A stretch of 64,000 bases of DNA from an uncultured Candidatus Saccharimonadales bacterium (GTDB lineage: Bacteria > Patescibacteriota > Saccharimonadia > UBA4664): assembly GCA_964505035.1 (NCBI GenBank), contig CAZDGK010000001.1, positions 12,270-76,269 on the forward strand, read 5' to 3'. The position numbers were made by a program, and so were the translations under genes. A model generated the notes under the pieces. It was given only the letters and a program-made list of their open reading frames with translations, was not told the origin of the DNA and searched no databases. Shown one piece after another: positions 1 to 45,834 of the stretch (positions are counted from its first letter, which is position 1; each line of letters starts with the position of its first letter).

Positions 1-13
1 GGATGTAGACTTT

Positions 14-658
14 ATGGTTATAACCAGTCCGACCCACTGGATGGGCCACGAAGAACTTGGCCAACGTGCCGATGAAACTGGTCAAATCGTTTCGCAAACA
101 ATTTCTGAAGAACTTGCGGCACGCGGTGGAAACCCTACCCGCCTTATTAACACTAGCGACAACATTCACGGCGATCTTACCAGGCAGCATAGAGGCATTG
201 AAGAAGCCCGCCTATTCAATGATCGCCAATTTACGGCGTTCATGCGCGAGCGCTACGGTGGCCAAGGTCGCGAATTTTGGGATGCGGTTAATGCAGACAC
301 CCACCGTGAACTGCGCGAAAGCCTGGGAGCAGAAGGGCCAGAAGATGTTGCCGCTAGGGTCCAGAGAACAATCGACCTCATTGCGCGTTTTGGCGAATAC
401 TACGAGCATCGCAACCCTGGTCGCAGGCTAGCGACGTTTATTATTACTCACCAAGAAGATCTTGAACCTTACGCGCAGCGTCGGCTAGGTGTTGCACCTG
501 CCGATTTCCAGCCTGGTTACAACGACGGCCTAGAAATCGCCATAGGCGCCGATGGGACAGCGACTGCCACGGTAAATGGACGAGAGTATGAAGCACCGGT
601 AACAACCAATCGGCCCCTTCCAGAGCGACAGCCAGGCGAGGCCGAACCAGGTGAGTAA
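14..658 (+). CDS. Hypothetical protein, probably 5'-truncated by the window edge. It lies in the low-GC island and overlaps the start of the next gene.
   Basis: The reading frame is open back to nt 2. The stop overlaps the start of the 651..3125 ORF. Local GC is about 45-55%. No motif I recognise. Confidence 0.4.
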   Translation: MVITSPTHWMGHEELGQRADETGQIVSQTISEELAARGGNPTRLINTSDNIHGDLTRQHRGIEEARLFNDRQFTAFMRERYGGQGREFWDAVNADTHRELRESLGAEGPEDVAARVQRTIDLIARFGEYYEHRNPGRRLATFIITHQEDLEPYAQRRLGVAPADFQPGYNDGLEIAIGADGTATATVNGREYEAPVTTNRPLPERQPGEAEPGE

Positions 659-3125
659 AAAGCTGAATTTTATACCGATGTACGAGATCGGTATGATCTC
701 GCCGCTTTACCCATGTATCGAGAACGGAGCCACATTTACCGATTTAATGCCGAAACTCGGTTTTTATGGCGACAAACACTTTTTGCTGTATTCAAACTTC
801 AATCTGGCTACCGCATACTACGAAGCCGACGAAATGTTACTATCAGGCAGGTATACATTTAGGCACTTGTCGAAGCCAACGCAGTTCACCCATTTTGTAA
901 ACGGCGTACATGAATCTGTTGCTAGAATACGTCAGTTCCTAGATAGGCTCGATAAGTTGGATGTTTGGACTATGCCGCAGGCAGAGCTAATAGACTTGCT
1001 TATAGAAAACAGCGAGATCGAAGCTAACATCTTCGCCTACTATAACAACACCCAACCTCAGAATTTCGCCATATTTGAACAAAAAATTATGGCGGCTCTG
1101 CGCAAAAAAGGCTTAGCCGAAGACGAAGCAATAGCAGCCATGTCGACGCTAACAACGTCTGAAGTCCCCACCCGTCTTAGCGAAGACGAATCCGACTGGC
1201 TACGTTTGGTCTTGGCGGCCAAACAGCAGCTTCCTTCTGACTGGAAAGCAATACGGCTGGAAAAGACCCACCCTGGCATTTACTCAAAGCTGCAAAAGCA
1301 CTTTGACGTTTATAAAACCCTACTGCTCGGCGATGGAAACTGGCAGCCTGATGTCAGCCATTATGTAAGCCTTCTCCGCAATGACATTGTTCGCCCGGCT
1401 GTTGAGCTGAATGAACGCCTAAAAGAACTAACCCAGTTTGCGACCAAGACTAAAGTGGCTAAAGCCGCACTCATTAAGCGCCTGGCGCTAACTGACGACA
1501 TAGTATTTTATGCTCATGTTATTAGCGAAGTAGGACATGTAAGGCTAATGATGCGAATAGATGGATTTATGCCGCTCGCCTATGCCAACGACAAGCCAAT
1601 CGTCGAGGCCCTAGCCCGCACATACAAGCTAGGTTCCCCAGAATTCAGATACATCACCTATGATGAGCTACTTAGCCTGCGCTCAAAGAATCCGCAACTA
1701 AACGCAGCAGAACTGAAGCGCCGGTTCAAGGAAAAGCACTTCCTTCTGATAGTAAACAATGGCAAGTACGAAATGTTGTTTGGCAAAAGTGCAGATATGG
1801 CCTTCGCCAAACTTGTGCCAGAAGCAAATTACTATACCGTAGAAGAGTTGTCGGGTAGTACAGCAATGGGCGGTCGCGTCAAAGGTATGGCCGTTGTATT
1901 TAACTGGGGTGACAATCTGCAAGATGCGCTAGACAAACTGCCTAAAGATGCCATTTTGGTGGCCGGTCAGACTAGGCCGCAGCTAATGCCATTAATCCGC
2001 GCGAGTAAAGGAATTATTACCGACGAGGGTGGTGTTATGAGCCACGCTGCGATAGTTGCTCGCGAGTTAGAAATGCCATGCATCGTAGGAACAAAAGTAG
2101 CGACAAAAGTGCTAAGGACAGGCGACTTAATCGAGCTAGATGCTGACAACGGTGTAATTAAGGTTATAGAGCACACTAACAAGACCAAAGCCGCACTATC
2201 TTACAAACGTATGTCTGCAACACAAAAGACAAAGAAGCTTGCCGGTAAGCCGGCAAGCACAACGTTGGTCGTTCAGCCCATTCTGCAATTCGATGAAATT
2301 AAGCAAGGCGAAACGGGTCTGGTTGGCGGTAAGGGCGGATCACTAGCTGCACTTTCGCGGGCGGGGCTGCCAGTTCCACCAGGGTTTGTGGTTACTACAG
2401 AATGCTTTAGGGCGTTTTCGACAAGCAAGATACCCGGCGACGTTCAAAAGAAGATCCTCGCAGCCTTCGACAAACTAGGGATAGATTATGTTGCGGTTCG
2501 GTCTTCGGCGATTGCAGAAGATTCTAAAGACACGTCCTGGGCCGGCCAGTTCGATACCCTATTGAATGTTACTCGCGATGGTTTAATTGCAGCAATTCAG
2601 AGCTGCTGGTATTCTGCCGAATCTGACTTGGTGCAGGATTATGCCAAAGATAACAAAATCGGGCGCGAAGATTTGGCACTTGCAGTGGTGGTTCAGGCAA
2701 TGGTTTCTAGTGATGTGTCTGGCGTGGCGTTTACCCACAACCCAGTTACCGGCGCCGCAAACGAAATAATGATAGAGGCCTGCTTTGGACTTGGTGAGAT
2801 GTTAGTCCAGGGCATGGTGACGCCAGATAACTTCTTGGTTGATAAGCAAGATTTAAGCGTTATGTCGCACGCGGCCAATAAACAACAGGTCATGCTCAGT
2901 TATGTGAAGGGCCAAAACATTGAGCTGCCCGTGCCTAACCCTAAAGCCAGTAAGCTTACTAAAACCCAACTGTTGGTAGTCGCTGGCCTTGCAAAGCGCA
3001 TAGAAGACTTCTACGGCACACCTCAAGACATTGAATGGGCGATGTCTAAGGGCCGAGTATACATAGTCCAATCACGCCCCATCACAACGCTGAAATCTTC
3101 TCGTCGTAAGGCGTCAAAGACCTAG
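651..3125 (+). CDS. PEP-utilising-enzyme / rifampin-phosphotransferase-like protein with permuted domain order: an N-terminal domain of unknown function, then a swivel phosphohistidine domain, then a C-terminal PPDK_N-type ATP-grasp domain.
   Basis: Phosphohistidine domain motif: 'GIITDEGGVMSHAAIVARELEMPCIVG'. The C-terminal half carries 'GGKGGSLAAL...LPVPPGFVVT...VAVRSSAIAEDS....IVQSRPIT', typical of the PEP-synthase/PPDK N-terminal nucleotide-binding domain. 824 aa. GC about 45% versus about 63% elsewhere. Confidence 0.75.
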   Translation: MSKKLNFIPMYEIGMISPLYPCIENGATFTDLMPKLGFYGDKHFLLYSNFNLATAYYEADEMLLSGRYTFRHLSKPTQFTHFVNGVHESVARIRQFLDRLDKLDVWTMPQAELIDLLIENSEIEANIFAYYNNTQPQNFAIFEQKIMAALRKKGLAEDEAIAAMSTLTTSEVPTRLSEDESDWLRLVLAAKQQLPSDWKAIRLEKTHPGIYSKLQKHFDVYKTLLLGDGNWQPDVSHYVSLLRNDIVRPAVELNERLKELTQFATKTKVAKAALIKRLALTDDIVFYAHVISEVGHVRLMMRIDGFMPLAYANDKPIVEALARTYKLGSPEFRYITYDELLSLRSKNPQLNAAELKRRFKEKHFLLIVNNGKYEMLFGKSADMAFAKLVPEANYYTVEELSGSTAMGGRVKGMAVVFNWGDNLQDALDKLPKDAILVAGQTRPQLMPLIRASKGIITDEGGVMSHAAIVARELEMPCIVGTKVATKVLRTGDLIELDADNGVIKVIEHTNKTKAALSYKRMSATQKTKKLAGKPASTTLVVQPILQFDEIKQGETGLVGGKGGSLAALSRAGLPVPPGFVVTTECFRAFSTSKIPGDVQKKILAAFDKLGIDYVAVRSSAIAEDSKDTSWAGQFDTLLNVTRDGLIAAIQSCWYSAESDLVQDYAKDNKIGREDLALAVVVQAMVSSDVSGVAFTHNPVTGAANEIMIEACFGLGEMLVQGMVTPDNFLVDKQDLSVMSHAANKQQVMLSYVKGQNIELPVPNPKASKLTKTQLLVVAGLAKRIEDFYGTPQDIEWAMSKGRVYIVQSRPITTLKSSRRKASKT

Positions 3126-3534
3126 CAAATAACTTTGTGGCTTACTGCCGGCCGGCATTACAACGAGATTGCCTGCTCTACCCTCAAGGATGTAGTACAT
3201 GAAATCTGACTCATGTTCAACGAGTGTGGTTTCGTGTCCATTTTCCGCGTCGATCAGTACAAAACCGGCTTTGTCGCTTAGTTCCCGGCTGGGAAATATT
3301 TTGCCTTAATGCCGACTTTATCAAAAGAAATAGTCGAGGGTTCATGAATTACATACATGCTGAGTGTATAGCGAATCTATGTCATAGCTATGTGGACCTT
3401 GCAAAAGTTTGGACATCCTATCTCTCCTGCCAGTAATTATCTATTTATTGCCTCCACAAAGCCCTGGCTGGTATACTATGCCAGACCTCAATCAGTCTGT
3501 CCGGATTCGTCCGGCAGCTCAGAAGGGTGGCGAC

Positions 3535-4041
3535 ATGTCCGACATACAGCCAATAACGAGCGGACCATGGTATTACTGTGCCCTCGTGACCATCCTCGTT
3601 GGATGGCCCCTCACGCTCGACGCGCTTTTGCGCTGGCCCTCCAGCTATCGCAAAGCCGGCCTGCACAAGTGGAAGTGGGTCACAGCGGCCCTCCTCTCCA
3701 ATCTGCTGTTCTACCCGGGGCTCGTCTTCGCGATCGTCTATCTCTTCAGCGCACGCGCTAAAATCAGGGCGACCAAACCCCGCCCCATACGCGATGCGTT
3801 CCGGGAAGCGAGAGAAACCAGCAACTCCGGCGGCTCCGGCAGCACCAGCGGCTCCACCACTGGTAGCGGACGGGGATCGACCGGCAGCAAGCGGCAATCG
3901 TTTATGCCGGACCGGCCGGCACATGTGCCAACCAAGCGGACACCCGTGCCCTGCGGCGCATGCCGGGCGACCGGACGCAACCCAGACGGCACCGTCTGCA
4001 CCTCGTGCGGCGGAAGCCGCAATGTGATTGGCACCTTCTAA
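3535..4041 (+). CDS. Small membrane protein (2-3 TM helices) with a C-terminal double CxxCxGxG (DnaJ-type) zinc-finger motif.
   Basis: An AGAAGGG Shine-Dalgarno (SD) sequence precedes the ATG at 3535. Hydrophobic segments present. C-terminus reads 'CGACRATGRNPDGTVCTSCGGSR'. An upstream in-frame extension to 3409 is possible. Confidence 0.5.
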   Translation: MSDIQPITSGPWYYCALVTILVGWPLTLDALLRWPSSYRKAGLHKWKWVTAALLSNLLFYPGLVFAIVYLFSARAKIRATKPRPIRDAFREARETSNSGGSGSTSGSTTGSGRGSTGSKRQSFMPDRPAHVPTKRTPVPCGACRATGRNPDGTVCTSCGGSRNVIGTF

Positions 4042-4209: not shown

Positions 4210-4650
4210 TTAGAATATTTTGAAGGATGAGATTCTGTCGTTCAGCGCACTTCCTACCCAGGGCACGAAGCCACCTTGGGCGCTGGTTGTGATCCAGCCG
4301 GCACCGCCGCCGGTACAGTTGTTTGTGTCATAGAAGTACACAATGCTGCCATAGTTTAGGTTTGAAACCAGAGAGCTTGCCCGGTTGTCAAACGAGAAAG
4401 CGCCATTAACCATAGGGATGCAGGTATTGGCTGGCGGCACACTAAAACCTACCTGCGTGCCGCTATAGTTAATGTCTTGCCAGAAACAGATCGAATTCGA
4501 CCAACACGCGGCCTGGGCGGTTGCTGTCTGCACCATGGCTAGCGGCGAAACGAAAGCCAAGCTCATGCTGAGCAAGACCAGCGCATGGCGGGCAAGTTTA
4601 ATGTTACGGAGTCTTAGTGCGCCCGAGCGCACCGTCTGAAGAAACTTCAT
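4210..4650 (-). CDS. Secreted protein with a beta/gamma-crystallin (peptidase-inhibitor I36 / killer-toxin-like) fold.
   Basis: Signal peptide 'MKFLQTVRSGALRLRNIKLARHALVLLSMSLAFVSPLAMVQTATAQA'. A GGAGGG SD precedes the ATG at 4650. Paired Cys/Tyr/Trp motifs ('CWSNSICFWQDINYSG', 'FDNRASS', 'NDRISSFKI'). Confidence 0.5.
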   Translation of the reverse strand: MKFLQTVRSGALRLRNIKLARHALVLLSMSLAFVSPLAMVQTATAQAACWSNSICFWQDINYSGTQVGFSVPPANTCIPMVNGAFSFDNRASSLVSNLNYGSIVYFYDTNNCTGGGAGWITTSAQGGFVPWVGSALNDRISSFKIF

Positions 4651-4751
4651 ACGACCCTCCAGTGAATTTGTAAAATACACCCTAGTAATTTCATTATAAC
4701 GCTTATGTCTAGTCCGGTCGGTCAAGGGATTACTTCTGGTATACTCTGCTT

Positions 4752-5939
4752 ATGGTTAAGGCCGCTTCTACTCCCGCCACAGCCAGCGCAATCCAGCTCA
4801 GTGCCTGGGCAATAATTGTGCTTACGGTCATCGCCGGCGCTGCCACCCTGCTCATGCCGGCGCCGGCTGGCCAATCTGCCGGCACCTTCCACGGTGAGTT
4901 CGCCACCTCACTGATGGTCGTAGTACTCAATTTGGGCGCTGCCGCCTTATTCCTGGTCAGCCTGGGCGGCTTCAGCGCCAAGCTCAAATTAGCCTACGTA
5001 GCCATGTGTGCCGCCTTCGTGGCTCAGAGTATCGGCTTCGTCCAAATCCCGTTGCTCAGTATTGCAGGCGAGCTCGGTTCGGCTTGGGTCAAGCAAGGCT
5101 GGGTGGTGCTGCCGTTCCTGTCCAGCGCCCTACTGACCTATTTTGGCGTCCGCGGGTTTGCCCGGTTATTTGGGGTGCGCGGGTGGCTGACATCCATCAG
5201 CCTCACTCAAGCAATCGTGGTCGCGGTAGCGGTCCTGCTCACGTTTATGCCGCACGCACCCTGGCACGAGTCCGAATTTTCCTTCGATGCCACCATCGCG
5301 CTCGAAGTCATTTCAGGGCTGGAGTGCACCTTTGCCGCCATGCTGGCCTTTCAGGTCAGTCGCCAGTCTAGCCAGCTCTACAAGCTACCGATGCAGCTCC
5401 TTACTGCCGGGCTCATTAGCGAGATTGCTAGCGTCCTCATCCAGGTACCGGCAGCTTTCCTGCTCACCAACGGTCTCGACTTGACGGCCAATGGCACAGC
5501 CATCGCGCCCCAAGTTGTCGGTGGAGTTATCTTGGTCTGGGCGGCGGTAGCCTTCCATGGCGTGCCATCGCGAGAACAAGCCGCTCTGCCGAGCGCAGTC
5601 TCAGAAGCCGGCCGGACCGCCCTCGACGCCGTGATGAGCCTGGCCAGCCTTGTCTCCGCGCCCGCCGGTATCGAATCATCCAGTGAGACACTGCGAGTAA
5701 TTACCTCCAATCTCCAGCCCGGTCAGGCCATTTCGCCCGAGGACGAGGACCGTCTGGCGCAATGTTATCTCGCCATCGAGAGCTACCTGGACAAGCGCGA
5801 GTTGGTCAGGCCTCAGCCGGTCGCCGCCATGCGCAACCGCACCGAGCTGGTATATGGCGAGGCGCTCACCCAGTCTAAGTTTTGGCAGACCGTTCGCCAG
5901 ACTCCTCCAGGTGCCGGACCCGCCCTCTCCAGCGCGTAG
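4752..5939 (+). CDS. Polytopic integral membrane protein of unknown function.
   Basis: 395-aa ORF with at least 8 hydrophobic helices and GC3-biased codons. Confidence 0.6.
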   Translation: MVKAASTPATASAIQLSAWAIIVLTVIAGAATLLMPAPAGQSAGTFHGEFATSLMVVVLNLGAAALFLVSLGGFSAKLKLAYVAMCAAFVAQSIGFVQIPLLSIAGELGSAWVKQGWVVLPFLSSALLTYFGVRGFARLFGVRGWLTSISLTQAIVVAVAVLLTFMPHAPWHESEFSFDATIALEVISGLECTFAAMLAFQVSRQSSQLYKLPMQLLTAGLISEIASVLIQVPAAFLLTNGLDLTANGTAIAPQVVGGVILVWAAVAFHGVPSREQAALPSAVSEAGRTALDAVMSLASLVSAPAGIESSSETLRVITSNLQPGQAISPEDEDRLAQCYLAIESYLDKRELVRPQPVAAMRNRTELVYGEALTQSKFWQTVRQTPPGAGPALSSA

Positions 5940-6010
5940 TCGATTATTTACAAAGCCAGTAAAAAAGTTTAATATAGGCAAGTCCAGTCCCAACTCCATA
6001 GGAGTGGCCC

Positions 6011-6367
6011 ATGAATCTACACATGTTCAACACCGAGGACGGCTACGCGCTCTGGGGCGCGTTCCTGACCGGCACTCACAACGACGGCGATGGCGGCATT
6101 CACATCTACGAGTGGTGGTTCACCATCGCCCGCACCGAGGAAGAGGCCCGTAAGACCCTGGAGGGTCCGGCAGAGGCGCGCAAGGCGCGATTCAGCTGGC
6201 ACGCGCACGATCCCGGCACCATCGAGTACCGGACCATCGGCCCGTCAGAGCTGGTCGTCTGCTGGCGTCTCCCCGTCGGCGACCACTACCTCAAGCCGGT
6301 GAAGCTGACGCATCCCAGCGCCAGCGGTCTCAACGTGACGGCCGCGCTGATCGACATGCGCAGCTAG
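6011..6367 (+). CDS. Hypothetical cytoplasmic protein.
   Basis: GGAG sits 7 nt before the ATG. Strong GC3 codon bias. No recognisable motif. Confidence 0.5.
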   Translation: MNLHMFNTEDGYALWGAFLTGTHNDGDGGIHIYEWWFTIARTEEEARKTLEGPAEARKARFSWHAHDPGTIEYRTIGPSELVVCWRLPVGDHYLKPVKLTHPSASGLNVTAALIDMRS

Positions 6368-6434
6368 TCACCACAGTGGCGGTAGCTGAACATCTCAGCT
6401 GCCGCTATTTATTTTAGGTTTTAGTCAAACAAGG

Positions 6435-6462
6435 TTGACACACCCCAGCAGCTTGCTACACT
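6435..6462 (+). promoter_or_regulatory. Sigma70-like promoter: TTGACA, 16-nt spacer, TACACT.
   Basis: TTGACA at 6435-6440 and TACACT at 6457-6462, immediately before the GTG start at 6466. This would give a leaderless transcript. Confidence 0.4.
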
Positions 6463-6465
6463 GTC

Positions 6466-6918
6466 GTGGTGACAAAAATCACTGAGTTCTCGTTCGAGAT
6501 CCGTTACACCGGCAACCCTCAGATCGGCAGCGGCGTGTTCGCCACTCACTCCATCGAGGCGGGCGCCATCATCCCCGGCGGCATATTGCTGCCCAGGCGC
6601 TCAGACTGCCGCGTGCTCCACGAATCCGACTTCCCGTCGGGGCTCAAGCACTTCACCAAGTACTGCGTCGCCAAGGACGTCGACGAGTGGTACTGCCCAT
6701 GGGACTTTGCTCGCATGGAAAACGGCTGGCGACTCAACCACGCCGACGAGCATGCCCAGGATCCAGCCGCCCAGCCGAGCCTCCGAATTGGCCCAGACTG
6801 GGAGCTGGAAGTCGTGCGGTTCATCGCCGCCGACGACGAAGTGCGCTGCGACTACAACCAGTTCGGCGAACCAATCCGCCGGCGCAAGCCCTACTACTAC
6901 AAGGGCGTAGTAGACTAG
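6466..6918 (+). CDS. SET-domain protein, a putative protein-lysine methyltransferase.
   Basis: 'GSGVFATHSIEAGAII' matches the SET N-terminal GxG region. 'RLNHADEH' is NHxC-like. 'EVRCDYNQFG' is ELxFDY-like. 150 aa. Confidence 0.55.
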   Translation: MVTKITEFSFEIRYTGNPQIGSGVFATHSIEAGAIIPGGILLPRRSDCRVLHESDFPSGLKHFTKYCVAKDVDEWYCPWDFARMENGWRLNHADEHAQDPAAQPSLRIGPDWELEVVRFIAADDEVRCDYNQFGEPIRRRKPYYYKGVVD

Positions 6919-6937
6919 GCGCGCCGCCCCCAAACTT

Positions 6938-6976
6938 GCCCGTCCGGTATTCATCCGGGCGGGCCATTTCTTTTGC
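6938..6976 (+). terminator. Rho-independent terminator.
   Basis: GCCCGTCCGG-tattca-TCCGGGCGGGC stem, including one G.U pair, followed by CATTTCTTTTG. Confidence 0.5.
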
Positions 6977-6988
6977 TACAATACTCTT

Positions 6989-7822
6989 GTGCTTATTAAG
7001 CGATTATCAATCACCGCGCTCGCCTGCCTCGCATTCTTAGCTACCACTGGCTCCATCCAGGCCGCCACCAATGCCTTGGCTCAGATCTTTACCGCCAGCA
7101 GTGCTAAGGGCAAGATCGTAGCCGGTGCGCTTGTTAGCGCCCAGCCGGGTGCGTCTGGTAGTGTCGAGCTGGCCGATGCCGCCACCGCCGACCGGCTCGT
7201 AGGCATAGCAGCCCAGGATGCCGTACTGGTCATCACGGGCAACACCTCGGCCGCCTCAGCATCCGCCAGCCAAGTTCAGGTTGTCCTAAGCGGCTCGGCC
7301 AGCGTGCTCGTCAGCGACCTGAATGGCTCCATCAAAGCCGGCGACCGCATCACCGCCTCGCCAATCGCCGGCGTGGGCATGCGGGCAGGTGGCAGTAGCC
7401 AGATTGTCGGCATTGCCCAGACCGATCTCAAAACCGCCACCGCCGCTACCCGCAGCATCACCGATGTGCATGGCGCCAGCCACAGCGTGCACGTCGGCAA
7501 CGTCCAGCTGCAAGTCGGCATCGGCAGCTACCAGGCACCCGGCAGCAACTACCTGCCGCCAGCCCTGCAGAGCCTGGCAGACAGCATCGCCGGCCGGTCC
7601 GTCTCGCTAGCCCGCATTATCATCTGCAGCCTGCTGCTGCTAGTGGCGCTGGTTAGCGTAGGCGTCCTCATCTTCACCGCCACGCGCTTTGCCATGATCG
7701 CGCTAGGTCGCAACCCGCTGGCGGCTTCCGGCATCCGCAAGAGCCTCTACCAAGTCATCTTTGTATCGGTCGTCATCGTCGGTGGGGCCTTGCTCGCCAG
7801 CTACATTGTCCTGACGCTTTAG
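6989..7822 (+). CDS. Secreted or membrane-anchored Ala/Ser-rich protein with a signal peptide and C-terminal TM helices.
   Basis: Signal peptide 'MLIKRLSITALACLAFLATTGSIQAAT'. Two hydrophobic helices at the C-terminus. GTG start with TACAAT 7 nt upstream. Confidence 0.55.
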   Translation: MLIKRLSITALACLAFLATTGSIQAATNALAQIFTASSAKGKIVAGALVSAQPGASGSVELADAATADRLVGIAAQDAVLVITGNTSAASASASQVQVVLSGSASVLVSDLNGSIKAGDRITASPIAGVGMRAGGSSQIVGIAQTDLKTATAATRSITDVHGASHSVHVGNVQLQVGIGSYQAPGSNYLPPALQSLADSIAGRSVSLARIIICSLLLLVALVSVGVLIFTATRFAMIALGRNPLAASGIRKSLYQVIFVSVVIVGGALLASYIVLTL

Positions 7823-7903
7823 CAGTGCCCAAAGCGGTTGCCTCAGGCCACACCTTAAGGTTAAGCTTAAGAGGAAACGTGACGAGGAGTAGCCGCGCCA
7901 TCC

Positions 7904-9958
7904 ATGGCCAATGAACGCTTCATGGATATCACCCCGCCAACCAGCAGCCAGCCGCTGCCGGGCGCTCAGGTATTGCCCGACCAGCCACCCACCTGGCCAG
8001 GTCTCGCGACCGTCCCGACGCCGCCGCCGAGCTTGCCGCCCCGCCGAGGGCTGTCGCTCAAGACCATCGTGCTGATTGCCGGCGCGGTCGTGGTGGCTGG
8101 CGGCACCGTCGCCGCTATCCTGCTGCGCGCCAACCGGCCCACCTCCACACAGGCCGGCGACTTCAAGTCCGTCCAGCTGTCACTGGCCGATCTCGCCTCC
8201 AATCCCGGCGCGACCGGCCTGATTGGCGCTAGCCTGCAGGTCAATGGCCGGCTCAACCTGTCCGACTCAGTCGTCTTTAACCCCTCCACCCAGCCCACTT
8301 CTCCCGTCGCCGGTCAGCTCTACTACGACCAGACCGCCAACCAGCTGGCGTTTTACAATGGCCAGGGCTACCTCAACCTGGGCGCCACCACCAACAACAC
8401 CACCAACGTCACCAATGTGCTGACCGGCGGCGGCGCTGGCGTCAAACTGCAGGCTACCACCCCCGGCACGCCTCAAACCGGCCACCTGGCCATCACCGGC
8501 ACTGCCATCGTCGGCACGCTTAGCACCAATATCATCGACGGGGGAACCGCCAAGCCGCTCTTCCTGAACCCCGTCTCCGTCAGCACTGCGCCCACCCCCG
8601 CTGGCATCCCGGTGCACATCGGCCTGGATGTACCCGGCGCCACCACCGAGGCCAGCCCCGGTTGGCAAGACGGTATGAATGCCCAGAAAGTCACCATGGG
8701 CGCCGACGGCGGCAAACTCCAGTCCATGAGCGTTATGTACGTGGGCGGCGCGCCCACCGACCACGTCCAGTTTGCCGTCTACGATGACGACGGCGACGTC
8801 CCCAGCAAACCCGGCAGCCGCCTCGCCGCCAGCGCCATCGTTAGTCTGGTGCCCGACGGCTGGGCCACCGCCACACTGCCGTCCATCACCCTCAGCCCCA
8901 ACACCACCTACTGGCTAGCCGTCAACACCGACTCCACCACCGCCCGTCGCACCGTCAACGGCGGCGCCCAGAATTATTGCTACGTCTTCAAGCCCTTTGG
9001 CGCCATGCCCGACCCGTTTAGTGCACCTGGCTGCTTTGGCGGCGACCTGACCTACCCGCTCTACGCCACCTACACCACCCTCGGCGGCACAGCCGGCGCT
9101 ATCAACCAGGCCCAAATGACCCTCGACCCGGCCAGCGGCGTGCTTATCCGCAACCCCATCGACAACGACACCGCTTTCCAAATCCAGAACTCGCTCGGCT
9201 CCAGCACCATCTTTAACGTCGATGTCGCCAATGGCCGCGTCGCCATTGGCAAGCTCAATGCCAGCTACAAACTCGACATCTCCGGCGGCGATGCCAACCT
9301 ATCGCTCAGCCGCTCCCTGCGCTTTGGCGGCCAGCAAACCCTCACCGTCACCAATACCGGCATTACCGCCCTCACCAACCTCAGCGGGGGCGGCACCGTG
9401 CGCGTTCAGGGCGACAGCTTCTCCGTCCAGGACCGCAGCGCCACCCACGCCAACCTCACCATCAATAACCTGACCGGCGCCACCACCTTCTCCAACGTCA
9501 GTGATTCCACCGGCGCCTTCCAGGTTCAAAACGCCGGCAGCACCACCGTCTTTAACGTCGACACCACCAATGCCGTCGTCACGGTCACCACCCTCGTCAC
9601 CGGCAACATCACGGTAAACGGCCATCTCATCACCGGTGGCACAGCGCCCGGCATTGCCGCCGGCGCCGCCGCCTGCACCACCCCCACCGTCAGCCTCATC
9701 GGCACCGATACCGCCGGCAGCATCACCATCACCACCGGCACTGGTTGTGCGGCCAGTGGCACGCTAGCCACCATCACCTTTGCCGCCGCCTTTGGGGCTG
9801 CCCCGCACATCGTGACCACTCCCGGCAATGCTGCCGCCCTGGCTCTCGGCGCCTACATCGACAACGCTACCGTCTCGACCACCAGCTTCAAGATCGCCAC
9901 CGGGACCACGCCTTCCAGCACCACGAGTTACCAATGGAATTACCTCGTCGCCCAGTAA
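7904..9958 (+). CDS. Large surface protein with a Pro-rich N-terminus, a single TM anchor, a Thr/Asn-rich body and tail-fibre-like beta repeats. It is a paralogue of 28986..30635.
   Basis: TM helix 'LKTIVLIAGAVVVAGGTVAAILL'. Repeats 'AFQIQNSLGSSTIFNVDVANGRVAIG' and 'AFQVQNAGSTTVFNVDTTNAVVTV'. A domain 'TYWLAVNTDSTT' is shared with the 28986 protein. Confidence 0.6.
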   Translation: MANERFMDITPPTSSQPLPGAQVLPDQPPTWPGLATVPTPPPSLPPRRGLSLKTIVLIAGAVVVAGGTVAAILLRANRPTSTQAGDFKSVQLSLADLASNPGATGLIGASLQVNGRLNLSDSVVFNPSTQPTSPVAGQLYYDQTANQLAFYNGQGYLNLGATTNNTTNVTNVLTGGGAGVKLQATTPGTPQTGHLAITGTAIVGTLSTNIIDGGTAKPLFLNPVSVSTAPTPAGIPVHIGLDVPGATTEASPGWQDGMNAQKVTMGADGGKLQSMSVMYVGGAPTDHVQFAVYDDDGDVPSKPGSRLAASAIVSLVPDGWATATLPSITLSPNTTYWLAVNTDSTTARRTVNGGAQNYCYVFKPFGAMPDPFSAPGCFGGDLTYPLYATYTTLGGTAGAINQAQMTLDPASGVLIRNPIDNDTAFQIQNSLGSSTIFNVDVANGRVAIGKLNASYKLDISGGDANLSLSRSLRFGGQQTLTVTNTGITALTNLSGGGTVRVQGDSFSVQDRSATHANLTINNLTGATTFSNVSDSTGAFQVQNAGSTTVFNVDTTNAVVTVTTLVTGNITVNGHLITGGTAPGIAAGAAACTTPTVSLIGTDTAGSITITTGTGCAASGTLATITFAAAFGAAPHIVTTPGNAAALALGAYIDNATVSTTSFKIATGTTPSSTTSYQWNYLVAQ

Positions 9959-10018: not shown

Positions 10019-10519
10019 GTGTTGCCAACATCAGAACCAACACTCGTATCTGTTGCCAGAATCCCTAATGTGGCAATTGTCACCAAGGATCTGCTAACAG
10101 CCCATCAGCGACTCATGGCCACTTACGACCCAAGCAACCCGCCCAAGGTAGTCAATCTAAGGCAGATGATCCGCGATCCCAACACTGTCATGTTGGTGGC
10201 TATCGCCGGACCACAACCCAAAGGACGAGCCGCCTGGGTTACCCTAAAAGGAGCCGACATTGTCGGCAGCCTGACGCTTATCATCAACCGGACGCTCACC
10301 CAAACCGTGGGCTTCATACCGCACGTAGTGGTCGATCCAGCTCGCCAAAACGAGGGGATTGGCACCATGCTGGTTCGGGAAGCCCTCAGGGAGAGCAGGG
10401 GACGCGGCGTCACCAGAGTTGAGCTAACCTCGGGCCGAGATAAGCCAGCCGCCAATCACGTCTACGCCAAACTGGGGTTTCAGTTGCACGAAACCAACAA
10501 CTGGCGCTACATCCTGTAG
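10019..10519 (+). CDS. GNAT-family N-acetyltransferase.
   Basis: 'VVVDPARQNEGIGTMLVREAL...AKLGF' matches the acetyl-CoA-binding motif A. Confidence 0.7.
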   Translation: MLPTSEPTLVSVARIPNVAIVTKDLLTAHQRLMATYDPSNPPKVVNLRQMIRDPNTVMLVAIAGPQPKGRAAWVTLKGADIVGSLTLIINRTLTQTVGFIPHVVVDPARQNEGIGTMLVREALRESRGRGVTRVELTSGRDKPAANHVYAKLGFQLHETNNWRYIL

Positions 10520-11126: not shown

Positions 11127-11187
11127 AGCTTCATCATAGCGGCTCCCACTGCACAGCACCACCTAGGCAAACTGCTACAATAGCTCT

Positions 11188-11679
11188 ATGAGCAATTGGT
11201 ACCGTCCAACTACCGGCATCGACAAGCTGTTTGAAGGCGGCCTCATCATCAAAGGTTTCACTGGTCTGCTGGAGTTCTCCGCTGGCTTGGCGCTCGTGTT
11301 TGTGCGGCCCGACACCATTAGTCGGTTCGTCGCCACGCTCACTCAGCCCGAGCTAGCCGAGGACCCTCGCGATCGTCTCGTGCACTACCTCATGCAGTCG
11401 GTGCGCGAGCTAGGCGGCACCAGCCGGGCGTTTCTCATCGCCTACCTCTGGGTACATGCTGCCGTCAAGCTCATTGCCGTCATTGGCCTGCTCCGCAACC
11501 ACCTCTGGGCCTATCCGTTTTCGCTCATTACGCTCGGCCTGCTGATGCTCTACCAGGTCTATAGCATCATCTTCGTTAGCCCGTCCTTACTGATGATTGG
11601 CCTCACCTTGTTTGACGTCGTCGTGCTCTGGCTCATCTGGCATGAGTACGGCATTATGCGTCTCCGCCTCAAGCCATAA
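11188..11679 (+). CDS. Small integral membrane protein with four predicted TM helices.
   Basis: Hydrophobic profile. 163 aa. Confidence 0.5.
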   Translation: MSNWYRPTTGIDKLFEGGLIIKGFTGLLEFSAGLALVFVRPDTISRFVATLTQPELAEDPRDRLVHYLMQSVRELGGTSRAFLIAYLWVHAAVKLIAVIGLLRNHLWAYPFSLITLGLLMLYQVYSIIFVSPSLLMIGLTLFDVVVLWLIWHEYGIMRLRLKP

Positions 11680-19121: not shown

Positions 19122-19130
19122 TGGTATAGT
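19122..19130 (+). promoter_or_regulatory. Extended -10 box (TGGTATAGT) for a leaderless trxB transcript.
   Basis: TGGTATAGT ends 7 nt before the ATG at 19138. Confidence 0.4.
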
Positions 19131-19137
19131 TAATAGT

Positions 19138-20076
19138 ATGAAACAGCCGGACCAACCGCTTGATCTGGTGATTATTGGCGCGGGCCCAGCCGGTCTGGCC
19201 GCTGCTGTCTACGCCACTCGCGAGGGGCTTCGGGTGGCAGTACTCGAAAGAGCTGTCGTCGGCGGACTCGCCGCCATCACCGCCACCATCGACAACTATC
19301 CCGGCTTCGACCAAGGGGTCGGCGGCCTGGAGCTAGCCGATCACCTCGCTGCCCATGCCCACCGCTTCGGCGCCGATCTTCGCACCGGTATCGAGGTCAC
19401 CAAGCTCGAGGCCGGCGACGGGGGAGTGCAGCTCACCACCAACCAGGGGCCACTCCACACCCGCAGCGCACTGGTGGCCACCGGCTCGAGCTATCGCCGG
19501 CTCGATGTGCCCGGCGAAGACCGGCTAGTGGGCCGGGGTGTGCACTACTGCGCCACCTGCGATGGTCCGCTCTACCGCGGCAAGGAACTCGTAGTGGTAG
19601 GCGGCGGCAATTCTGCCATGCAGGAGGGGCTATTCCTGGCCCGGTTCGCCAGCCATCTCACTATCTTGGTACGTGGCCACTCACTTGGCGGCACTACCAT
19701 CCTGCGCAATCAGCTTGCCGCCCTGCCCAACGTCTCGGTCGTCTACGACACCCCAGTCACCAGCCTGTCCAAAACTGGCGGCCGGGTGCAGGTCAACCAC
19801 TTGGGCCCAGCGGGGAAGGCCGGCCACCTCACTACCGATGGCGTGTTCGTCTTTGTTGGCCAGCAGGCAAATACCAAAGCCTTCGCCAGCACCCTCAAGC
19901 TCGACCCCCAGGGCTACATCATCACGACACCCGACTTTCGCACCAACCTACCCGGGGTCTACGCCGCCGGTGATGTGCGCTCCGGCAGCACGTGGCAAAT
20001 CGCCAGCGCCGTGGGTGACGGCGTCACAGCCGCCCTGGCCATCCGGGCCGCGCTCTCTGGATCTAGCCGCTCCTAA
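19138..20076 (+). CDS. trxB: Thioredoxin-disulfide reductase.
   Basis: FAD motif 'IIGAGPAGLAAA', redox-active 'CATCDG' and NADPH motif 'VVGGGNSA'. Confidence 0.9.
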   Translation: MKQPDQPLDLVIIGAGPAGLAAAVYATREGLRVAVLERAVVGGLAAITATIDNYPGFDQGVGGLELADHLAAHAHRFGADLRTGIEVTKLEAGDGGVQLTTNQGPLHTRSALVATGSSYRRLDVPGEDRLVGRGVHYCATCDGPLYRGKELVVVGGGNSAMQEGLFLARFASHLTILVRGHSLGGTTILRNQLAALPNVSVVYDTPVTSLSKTGGRVQVNHLGPAGKAGHLTTDGVFVFVGQQANTKAFASTLKLDPQGYIITTPDFRTNLPGVYAAGDVRSGSTWQIASAVGDGVTAALAIRAALSGSSRS

Positions 20077-45018: not shown

Positions 45019-45040
45019 GAGCCCACCCGGGCTCTTTTTT
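45019..45040 (+). terminator. Rho-independent terminator after rplL.
   Basis: GAGCCC-accc-GGGCTC followed by TTTTTT. Confidence 0.6.
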
Positions 45041-45054
45041 GATATGATCGGCGT

Positions 45055-45834
45055 ATGACACCCGAGAATGGACCCAACCAAGCCCACGAGTTTACCGCCA
45101 AGGACCAAGCCGAGCTGCTATCCCTGCTCGGCCACCACGATGCCGAATCGAGCACCGAAGGCGTCGAGCACCTCGAGCCAGCCACCGGCAGCGACATGTT
45201 CCGCGACTTCCAAGCCACCTTCATGCTCGGCAATGGCGGCGCCACTGGCCAAGAGGCCGCCATGCGGCTGATGGCCGGCGCCTACCGTCGCAACACTACC
45301 GGACCAGAGCTCCAAGCCGCCACCGCCGAAGCCAACCAGCGTATCGCCGACCTACGCATACCCAATAAGCACGCGCCCATACCGGTTGCCCAGTACGGCG
45401 CTTATGCCATCAACTCAGCCGACAATCTTCTCAAGGGCAGCTCCTTTGTCGATCGCTGGGCCGTTTTTCAGGGCCTCATTCTTGGTCAGCTGACACCACC
45501 CAGAGCGGCCACCCAGCAACAGCTCAGACAAGACATCATTACCAGCGCACTCCAAATGGATGTCCGCTACATTACTGAAGGCCGGAAAGGACGCGAGAAG
45601 AGTGGCGACCCTCACGAGAGCATCTATCGCGAATATATCCTCGGCGACAGTCTGCGTGGCAGTGATTACGTCATCGCACTCCGGGATGCTCTGCGCGAAA
45701 CCGCCCTCGAAATGGTCCAGTCCGGCCACATGCCGCCCCAGCTAGCCGAAGTTGTGCAGCTATGGGAGGCCCATCATCCCGGCCAGCGTTTCTTTGATCT
45801 GCCCGCTCCGCGCCAGCGCCCTAAATCAAATTGA
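45055..45834 (+). CDS. Hypothetical protein, occupying the position where rpoB normally follows rplL.
   Basis: TATGAT lies 7 nt upstream of the ATG. 259 aa. No motif I recognise. Confidence 0.5.
   Translation: MTPENGPNQAHEFTAKDQAELLSLLGHHDAESSTEGVEHLEPATGSDMFRDFQATFMLGNGGATGQEAAMRLMAGAYRRNTTGPELQAATAEANQRIADLRIPNKHAPIPVAQYGAYAINSADNLLKGSSFVDRWAVFQGLILGQLTPPRAATQQQLRQDIITSALQMDVRYITEGRKGREKSGDPHESIYREYILGDSLRGSDYVIALRDALRETALEMVQSGHMPPQLAEVVQLWEAHHPGQRFFDLPAPRQRPKSN

Follow-up and report, generated by a model that had tools for sequence, protein, structure and literature searches.

A small SET-domain protein gene in a Saccharibacteria contig is a divergent member of an already annotated family

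Introduction

Among the described SET enzymes, the viral protein vSET (A612L of PBCV-1, a methyltransferase for lysine 27 of histone H3; PDB 1n3j and 3kma) is a minimal one, with 119 residues and neither a pre-SET nor a post-SET module. Set7 of S. pombe (5h6z) is a eukaryotic histone methyltransferase, and RomA/LegAS4 of Legionella (5czy, 8sr6/8swi) is a secreted effector of 450-550 residues with extra domains that targets host histone H3. Two prokaryotic SET proteins methylate chromatin proteins of their own cell, namely Go1-SET of Methanosarcina mazei, which acts on MC1-alpha, and cpnSET of Chlamydophila pneumoniae, which acts on Hc1 (PMC3980110); the same 2014 review lists over 500 bacterial genomes with SET genes. 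Here we describe a SET-domain protein gene in a stretch of 64,000 nucleotides from an uncultured Candidatus Saccharimonadales bacterium (contig CAZDGK010000001.1 of assembly GCA_964505035.1), which is called the window below and to which all coordinates refer. The open reading frame (ORF) is a real gene for a small SET-domain methyltransferase, and it is a divergent Saccharibacteria representative of a SET family that is already annotated.

6469..6918, + strand: SET-domain protein gene, 149 residues plus stop; the alternative start GTG 6466 gives 150 residues.

The nearest likeness of this protein is to a family that is annotated as 'SET domain-containing protein' in genomes of Patescibacteria, or Candidate Phyla Radiation (CPR), and Dependentiae and that has the same domain-only architecture and aligns with it over the full length. 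The blocks held in common are TEFSF, G[VI]GVFA, YC...CPxDF, GW[YH]LNHS, GEEIxIDYN and EPExxKEDYY, whereas the SET protein departs from the family in having GSG for G[VI]G, WRLNHA for WYLNHS, DDEVRCDY for GEEIxIDY and a spacer of 10 instead of 2 residues between the NH and P positions. vSET is likewise a minimal SET domain, and its NHS..PN and EEIxISY motifs and both of its tyrosines align to the family profile. LegAS4, in contrast, has NF where the SET protein has NH. It may also be noted that the SET protein differs from the secreted nucleomodulins (RomA/LegAS4, NUE, BaSET) in having neither a recognised export signal nor an effector architecture, nor, probably, a eukaryotic host. Go1-SET and cpnSET provide the functional model that we favour; the likeness would be one of function.

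Family membership of the SET protein

A search with the Pfam SET model, a structure prediction and a phylogeny had been proposed as checks in the initial annotation, which had called the protein SET-type from its sequence motifs. As a single query, the protein scores 23.0 bits (E = 1.1e-4) against Pfam SET (PF00856), the gathering cut-off being 22.4, and the match spans the whole profile (positions 1-105 of 105). Taken by itself this match is marginal, and membership rests on the family and fold evidence. With phmmer, run exhaustively on 1.84 billion representatives, 62 relatives were found at E <= 1e-3, mostly of 120-180 residues and 29-48% identical to the SET protein over the matched stretches. 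The SET protein and 37 of these 62 make up alignment A1, and all 38 of its sequences match Pfam SET (best E = 2.7e-14). Against the PDB the A1 profile matched S. pombe Set7, LegAS4, vSET, MLL3, MLL1 and ASH1L at E ~1e-8; in the alignments with solved SET enzymes NH pairs with NH, and the invariant tyrosine of the family pairs with the tyrosine of ISY/INY. Together with the predicted fold given below, these matches support the SET-type assignment.

The family profile matched 1303 cluster representatives at E <= 1e-5, and PF00856 is assigned to all the matches listed among them. These are SET-only proteins of ~130 residues, with named members from Nomurabacteria, Parcubacteria, the 'Patescibacteria group' and Dependentiae. 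The earlier view that SET methyltransferases are rare in bacteria is therefore overstated, as this number comes from one family profile alone, and small SET-only proteins are common in Patescibacteria/CPR and Dependentiae. Of the proposed phylogeny, the part covered here is the gathering of relatives, which place the protein in this family. Literature searches found no paper on Patescibacteria SET proteins and no experimentally characterised member of the ~130-residue family.

A word-indexed search of 5.8 billion proteins returned only one relative (P0001), 99% identical, from a Candidatus Saccharimonas metagenome-assembled genome (MAG); at NCBI it has the name SET domain-containing protein-lysine N-methyltransferase. 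Its contig is 99.96% identical to window positions 6279-8748, and P0001 therefore comes from the same organism. Because P0001 already carries a SET methyltransferase name in a public MAG, the gene alone changes no current view, and the find is correct but ordinary. NCBIfam assigned no family to the SET protein, and a pattern scan of the GTDB species genomes, a method that detects close relatives only, gave no relative. A tblastn search of phage genomes gave no match to the SET protein, and viral contigs, scanned with the family alignment, yielded one weak match (27% identity); the family has no marked presence in viruses. One relative of 325 residues (P0002; L090 5001-5978, on the 1.45-Mb contig CP064957.1) aligns with the SET protein twice, in separate stretches, and so may have a tandem or extended SET architecture.

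Conserved residues and predicted fold

Conservation was counted in alignment A2, which holds 120 sequences including the SET protein and on which the AlphaFold2 model was also built. The invariant columns are G21, G23, I30, P78, F81, N91, H92, E125, Y130 and E135, and the SET protein keeps all of them. The three motifs on which the SET-type call had been based were recovered as G21-S22-G23, N91-H92 in WRLNHADEH and D129-Y130 in EVRCDYNQFG, and they fall on invariant or near-invariant columns. The motif codons are the following.

6526..6534, + strand: G21-S22-G23, SET motif I (GxG), cofactor pocket; G21 and G23 invariant in 120/120.
6661..6663, + strand: Y66, aligned with Y50 of vSET (1n3j) in the family-profile alignment; Y in 106/120, F in 11/120.
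6736..6741, + strand: N91-H92, SET NH motif, invariant in 120/120 and paired with NH in vSET and in S. pombe Set7.
6838..6855, + strand: E125-V-R-C-D-Y130, counterpart of ELxFDY with the catalytic tyrosine; E125 and Y130 invariant.
6868..6900, + strand: C-terminal family motif EPxxx[KR]xxYY (E135...Y143-Y144-Y145), conserved in A2.

At position 22 the residue is V or I in 117/120 sequences, and S is present only in the SET protein and its twin P0001. Y50 is the second active-site tyrosine of vSET. Y130 is aligned to Y105 of vSET and to the tyrosine of the ISY motif in Set7. The rest of the NH(S) motif is off the family pattern, with A93 for S, an insertion of 8 residues and PS for PN. In the C-terminal motif E135 is invariant, P136 is present in 117/120, Y143 in 110/120 and Y144 in 115/120 sequences, and we infer that this tail would be a minimal post-SET flap that closes the lysine channel.

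The AlphaFold2 model has a mean predicted local distance difference test score (pLDDT) of 90.1 and a predicted template modelling score (pTM) of 0.82. With Foldseek against the PDB it matches vSET first and then MLL1, ASH1L, SETD8, SET7/9 and PRDM domains (probability 1.00, template modelling score ~0.5), so that the structure prediction proposed earlier yields a confident model with SET fold matches. LegAS4 is among the best matches both of the family by sequence and of the SET protein by fold. As modelled, the protein has the SET beta-fold, and the Foldseek matches span both segments that would form the knot. It has only four cysteines (C47, C67, C77, C128) and ends 20 residues after Y130; neither a Cys-rich pre-SET nor a CxCx4C post-SET module of the SUV39, SET2 or EZH type was found in its sequence. 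It is therefore SET-only, as vSET and S. pombe Set7 are. Inspection of the sequence, with respect to recognised export signals, also gave no signal peptide, N-terminal extension or extra domain.

Reading frame and transcription unit

The ORF list of the window gives the SET ORF as 6466..6918 on the + strand, with 150 residues and a GTG start, as in the initial annotation. An in-frame TGA at 6436-6438, which lies within a TTGACA hexamer, closes the frame upstream, and translation can thus begin only at GTG 6466 or at the adjacent GTG 6469. The start of P0001, a protein of 149 residues, is equivalent to GTG 6469. Because the -10 hexamer described below ends 6 nucleotides before 6469, because there is no Shine-Dalgarno sequence before the SET start and because NCBI has the same start, GTG 6469 is likely the initiation codon (149 residues), and GTG 6466 is the alternative (150 residues); the ORF reported earlier stands with its start probably shifted by one codon. 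A start at GTG 6535 (V24) was considered and rejected, as it would lose the GxG motif and the N-terminal TEFSF block (residues 5-10), whose conservation across relatives (E7 in 119/120, F8 in 114/120, S9 in 116/120, F10 in 118/120) rules it out. The G+C content at the locus is ~62%, and long spurious ORFs overlap the SET ORF in other frames; the antisense ORFs 6546-6824 and 6601-6954 are treated as by-products of the high G+C.

The signals around the gene are arranged as follows.

6375..6409, + strand: terminator-like hairpin of the upstream gene (6011-6367), a 15-pair stem with a 5-nucleotide loop, then TATTTTAGGT; 5' boundary of the SET unit.
6435..6440, + strand: -35-like hexamer TTGACA, which includes the in-frame TGA 6436-6438.
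6454..6462, + strand: extended -10-like TGcTACACT, with the hexamer TACACT at 6457-6462 and the TG present; ends 6 nucleotides before GTG 6469.
6938..6974, + strand: intrinsic-terminator-like hairpin (6938-6964) with a T-rich tail, 10 pairs of which 9 are G-C, then CATTTCTTTT.
6974..6991, + strand: extended -10-like TGcTACAAT (6974-6982), 6 nucleotides and GTG 6989 of the next gene; 3' boundary of the SET unit.

The promoter-like site consists of TTGACA, a spacer of 16 nucleotides and TACACT, and matches at 10 of the 12 hexamer positions. Two such sites are present in the region 5900-7400, against 0.4 +/- 0.6 in shuffled sequences. The hairpin at 6938-6964 has a folding energy of -23 kcal/mol (z = -2.05). 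The TTGACA/TACACT promoter, the clean terminator and the monocistronic unit that the initial annotation described are all supported, in the order terminator, promoter, ORF, terminator and the next gene's own -10 box. We add one refinement. As the -10 box ends 6 nucleotides before GTG 6469 and a Shine-Dalgarno sequence is absent, the SET mRNA is probably leaderless, starting at or beside this codon.

This layout recurs in the window. TGnTAnnnT ending 6-7 nucleotides before the ORF start is also found at the long ORFs that start at 4752, 6989, 11188, 19138 and 45055, which together with the SET gene gives the following list.

4737-4754, 6454-6471, 6974-6991, 11173-11190, 19122-19140 and 45040-45057: extended -10 and start sites, without a Shine-Dalgarno sequence, at the ATG or GTG of a long ORF.

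With the looser pattern TANNNT at the same spacing of 6-7 nucleotides, ~11 of 64 gene starts in the window match, compared with a background of ~1.6% over all ATG/GTG triplets. Genes of the window that do not have such a -10 box mostly show Shine-Dalgarno-like motifs upstream of a candidate start. Given this recurrence at 6 or more other gene starts, the layout at the SET gene is a pattern and not an isolated coincidence, and leaderless transcripts seem to be common in this Saccharibacteria genome.

Insertion in the NH segment

6745..6774, + strand: 10-residue spacer between NH[S/A] and P[N/S], residues 94-103 (DEHAQDPAAQ), from the spacer counts in A1 and A2.

The spacer between NH and P has 2 residues in 118 of the 120 A2 sequences, and 10 only in the SET protein and its 99% identical twin. 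In A1 it has 2 residues in 34 sequences, 3 in three and 10 only in the SET protein. Read from these alignments, the spacer of 10 instead of 2 is a lineage-specific insertion of 8 residues that would adjoin the cofactor site, and it could tune activity or specificity, or weaken either. The AlphaFold2 model is confident across it (mean pLDDT 90 for residues 91-100 and 94 for residues 101-110).

Proposed function and its alternatives

With moderate confidence, we take the gene to encode a minimal stand-alone SET enzyme of 149 residues that methylates protein lysines with S-adenosylmethionine (SAM) and is expressed from its own, probably leaderless transcript. The analysis establishes the ORF, its family membership and fold, the conserved catalytic motifs and the arrangement of the signals; that the protein is an active enzyme, that lysine accepts the methyl group and what the substrate is are what we infer. 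SAM would be held by the GxG turn (G21-S-G23) and N91-H92, while Y66, Y130 and probably the conserved C-terminal Y143/Y144 would form the walls of a narrow channel for the target lysine, whose epsilon-amino group would take up the methyl group by SN2 attack. The gene would be transcribed alone from the extended -10 promoter, with transcription ending at the hairpin 6938-6964. As there is no signal peptide, the protein would be cytoplasmic, and its substrate is most likely endogenous; by analogy with Go1-SET and cpnSET, our best guess is an abundant basic protein, e.g. a nucleoid-associated or ribosomal one.

Several points weigh against this proposal. Alone, the protein is barely above the Pfam gathering score, and phmmer finds nothing significant for it among the PDB sequences (a nanobody match at E = 1 was discarded as spurious). 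Its mean identity to the family members is 36% (range 31-40%) as against 55% among the members themselves, for which the median nearest-neighbour identity is 75%. Near-invariant positions are substituted (V/I22S, Y89R, S93A, N105S, G123D, I128C), and the insertion into the NHSxxPN segment might leave the enzyme less active or change what it does. Also, the six relatives' loci show no conserved gene neighbourhood that would point to a substrate; their neighbourhoods are unrelated, so that context gives no substrate clue. Lastly, BurB is a small bacterial SET enzyme whose substrate is a free amino acid and not a protein.

The divergence just described would also be expected of a catalytically weakened or inactive SET domain that is kept for binding, or of a gene drifting toward loss. 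The long branch, the replacement of several residues that more than 90% of the members share and the 8-residue insertion agree with this, as do the single near-identical homologue among 5.8 billion proteins and the absence of a relative in the pattern scan of GTDB species genomes, with its restriction to close relatives. Yet all invariant residues are kept, N91, H92 and Y130 included, the ORF is intact between its own promoter-like and terminator-like signals, and the model stays confident through the insertion; we consider loss of function unlikely. The possibility that there is no real gene at all, only a chance ORF, would draw on the G+C of ~62% and the long spurious ORFs in other frames, but the homology to 62 and 1303 proteins, the confident SET fold, the conserved motifs and the matching transcription signals reduce its probability to almost nil. 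The BurB precedent (Burkholderia thailandensis; 9l4t) raises a further option, a SET-fold enzyme for small molecules, as BurB converts free methionine to S-methylmethionine within the dimethylsulfoniopropionate (DMSP)/malleicyprol pathway. No such context is present at the SET locus: counterparts of the partners BurI, BurD and BurE, which mark the BurB/MSMT type, are absent there and at the relatives' loci, and what is encoded nearby is a set of hypothetical membrane or secreted proteins together with a GNAT protein and a phosphatase. BurB is also outside the 60 best family-profile matches, which are all protein methyltransferases or SET domains, and both tyrosines of the lysine channel are conserved, which makes this option quite improbable.

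Export to another cell must also be weighed. Cultivated Saccharibacteria are obligate epibionts, and the window is from Saccharibacteria, so that the enzyme might be an effector delivered to the host cell (probably a bacterium) or its surface, where it would methylate host proteins in parallel with Legionella RomA/LegAS4 and Chlamydia NUE, which methylate host histones. The gene lies among lineage-specific genes for secreted, membrane and surface proteins, LegAS4 is among the best matches by sequence and by fold, and ~10 of 118 family members have Sec-like signal peptides, one of them from Dependentiae. A subset of the family may, judging by such sequences, be exported. Against this, the SET protein itself has neither a signal peptide nor an N-terminal extension, most family members have no export signals, no secretion-system genes were seen adjacent to the SET gene, and a bacterial host has no histones. 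Delivery to a host is accordingly rated as unlikely. In a bolder version, to which we give very little credence, the epibiont would methylate lysines of bacterial-host proteins, or its own nucleoid protein as a regulatory mark, and the insertion and the neighbouring substitutions would retune the choice of substrate. If true, this would be a prokaryote-on-prokaryote counterpart of the SET nucleomodulins. What the family's members methylate bears on whether lysine methylation serves ultra-small symbionts to mark nucleoid or ribosomal proteins of their own, or proteins of the host.

For the endogenous lysine methyltransferase that we favour, the points of interest are the unique insertion beside the cofactor site, the leaderless single-gene unit, which would be easy to clone as such, and the abundance of an uncharacterised SET family in ultra-small symbionts. 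As a separate observation, the A2 members with Sec-like N-terminal extensions include P0068, P0069, P0071, P0072, P0090, P0092, P0098, P0170 and P0179.

Genomic context

The ATP synthase beta subunit encoded in the window is 73-81% identical to Saccharibacteria MAGs, which are its best matches among the GTDB species genomes; an F-type ATP synthase operon lies farther along the window. Encoded around the SET gene are hypothetical membrane or secreted proteins that are lineage-specific, a protein with an I36 peptidase-inhibitor domain, a GNAT protein and a histidine phosphatase. The lineage-specific genes for predicted secreted, membrane or surface proteins are at 4210-4725, 4752-5939, 6989-7822 and 7904-9958. 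The gene at 4210-4725 (- strand) encodes a predicted secreted protein with the peptidase inhibitor I36 domain (E = 1.4e-8) and is divergent from the membrane-protein gene at 4752-5939. Apart from a weak PHROG match in a protein of 684 residues, neither PADLOC nor PHROGs had a hit to the SET protein or to the proteins encoded next to it, so that these searches lend no support to a defence-system or prophage setting. The 684-residue protein (7904-9958) is a predicted surface protein rich in Thr, Gly and Ala, with no Pfam domain; its residues 118-182 weakly match phrog_8309, of unknown function. Across the 64-kb window no Rfam families and no tRNA genes were found.

In several genomes genes for a GNAT acetyltransferase and a class I methyltransferase are present within a few kb of SET genes (L004/L005 1-1391; L089 5544-9523), and the window GNAT gene (10019-10519) is 3 kb downstream of the SET gene. 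As both families are common, this proximity could be due to chance. The first part of the window (1-4000), which includes a gene for a phosphoenolpyruvate (PEP)-utilising/PPDK_N-domain protein (651-3125), has a G+C of 0.49-0.52 as against ~0.57-0.65 elsewhere. The GC skew is zero or negative in each 2-kb bin (cumulative -4.47), though most of the long ORFs are on the + strand.
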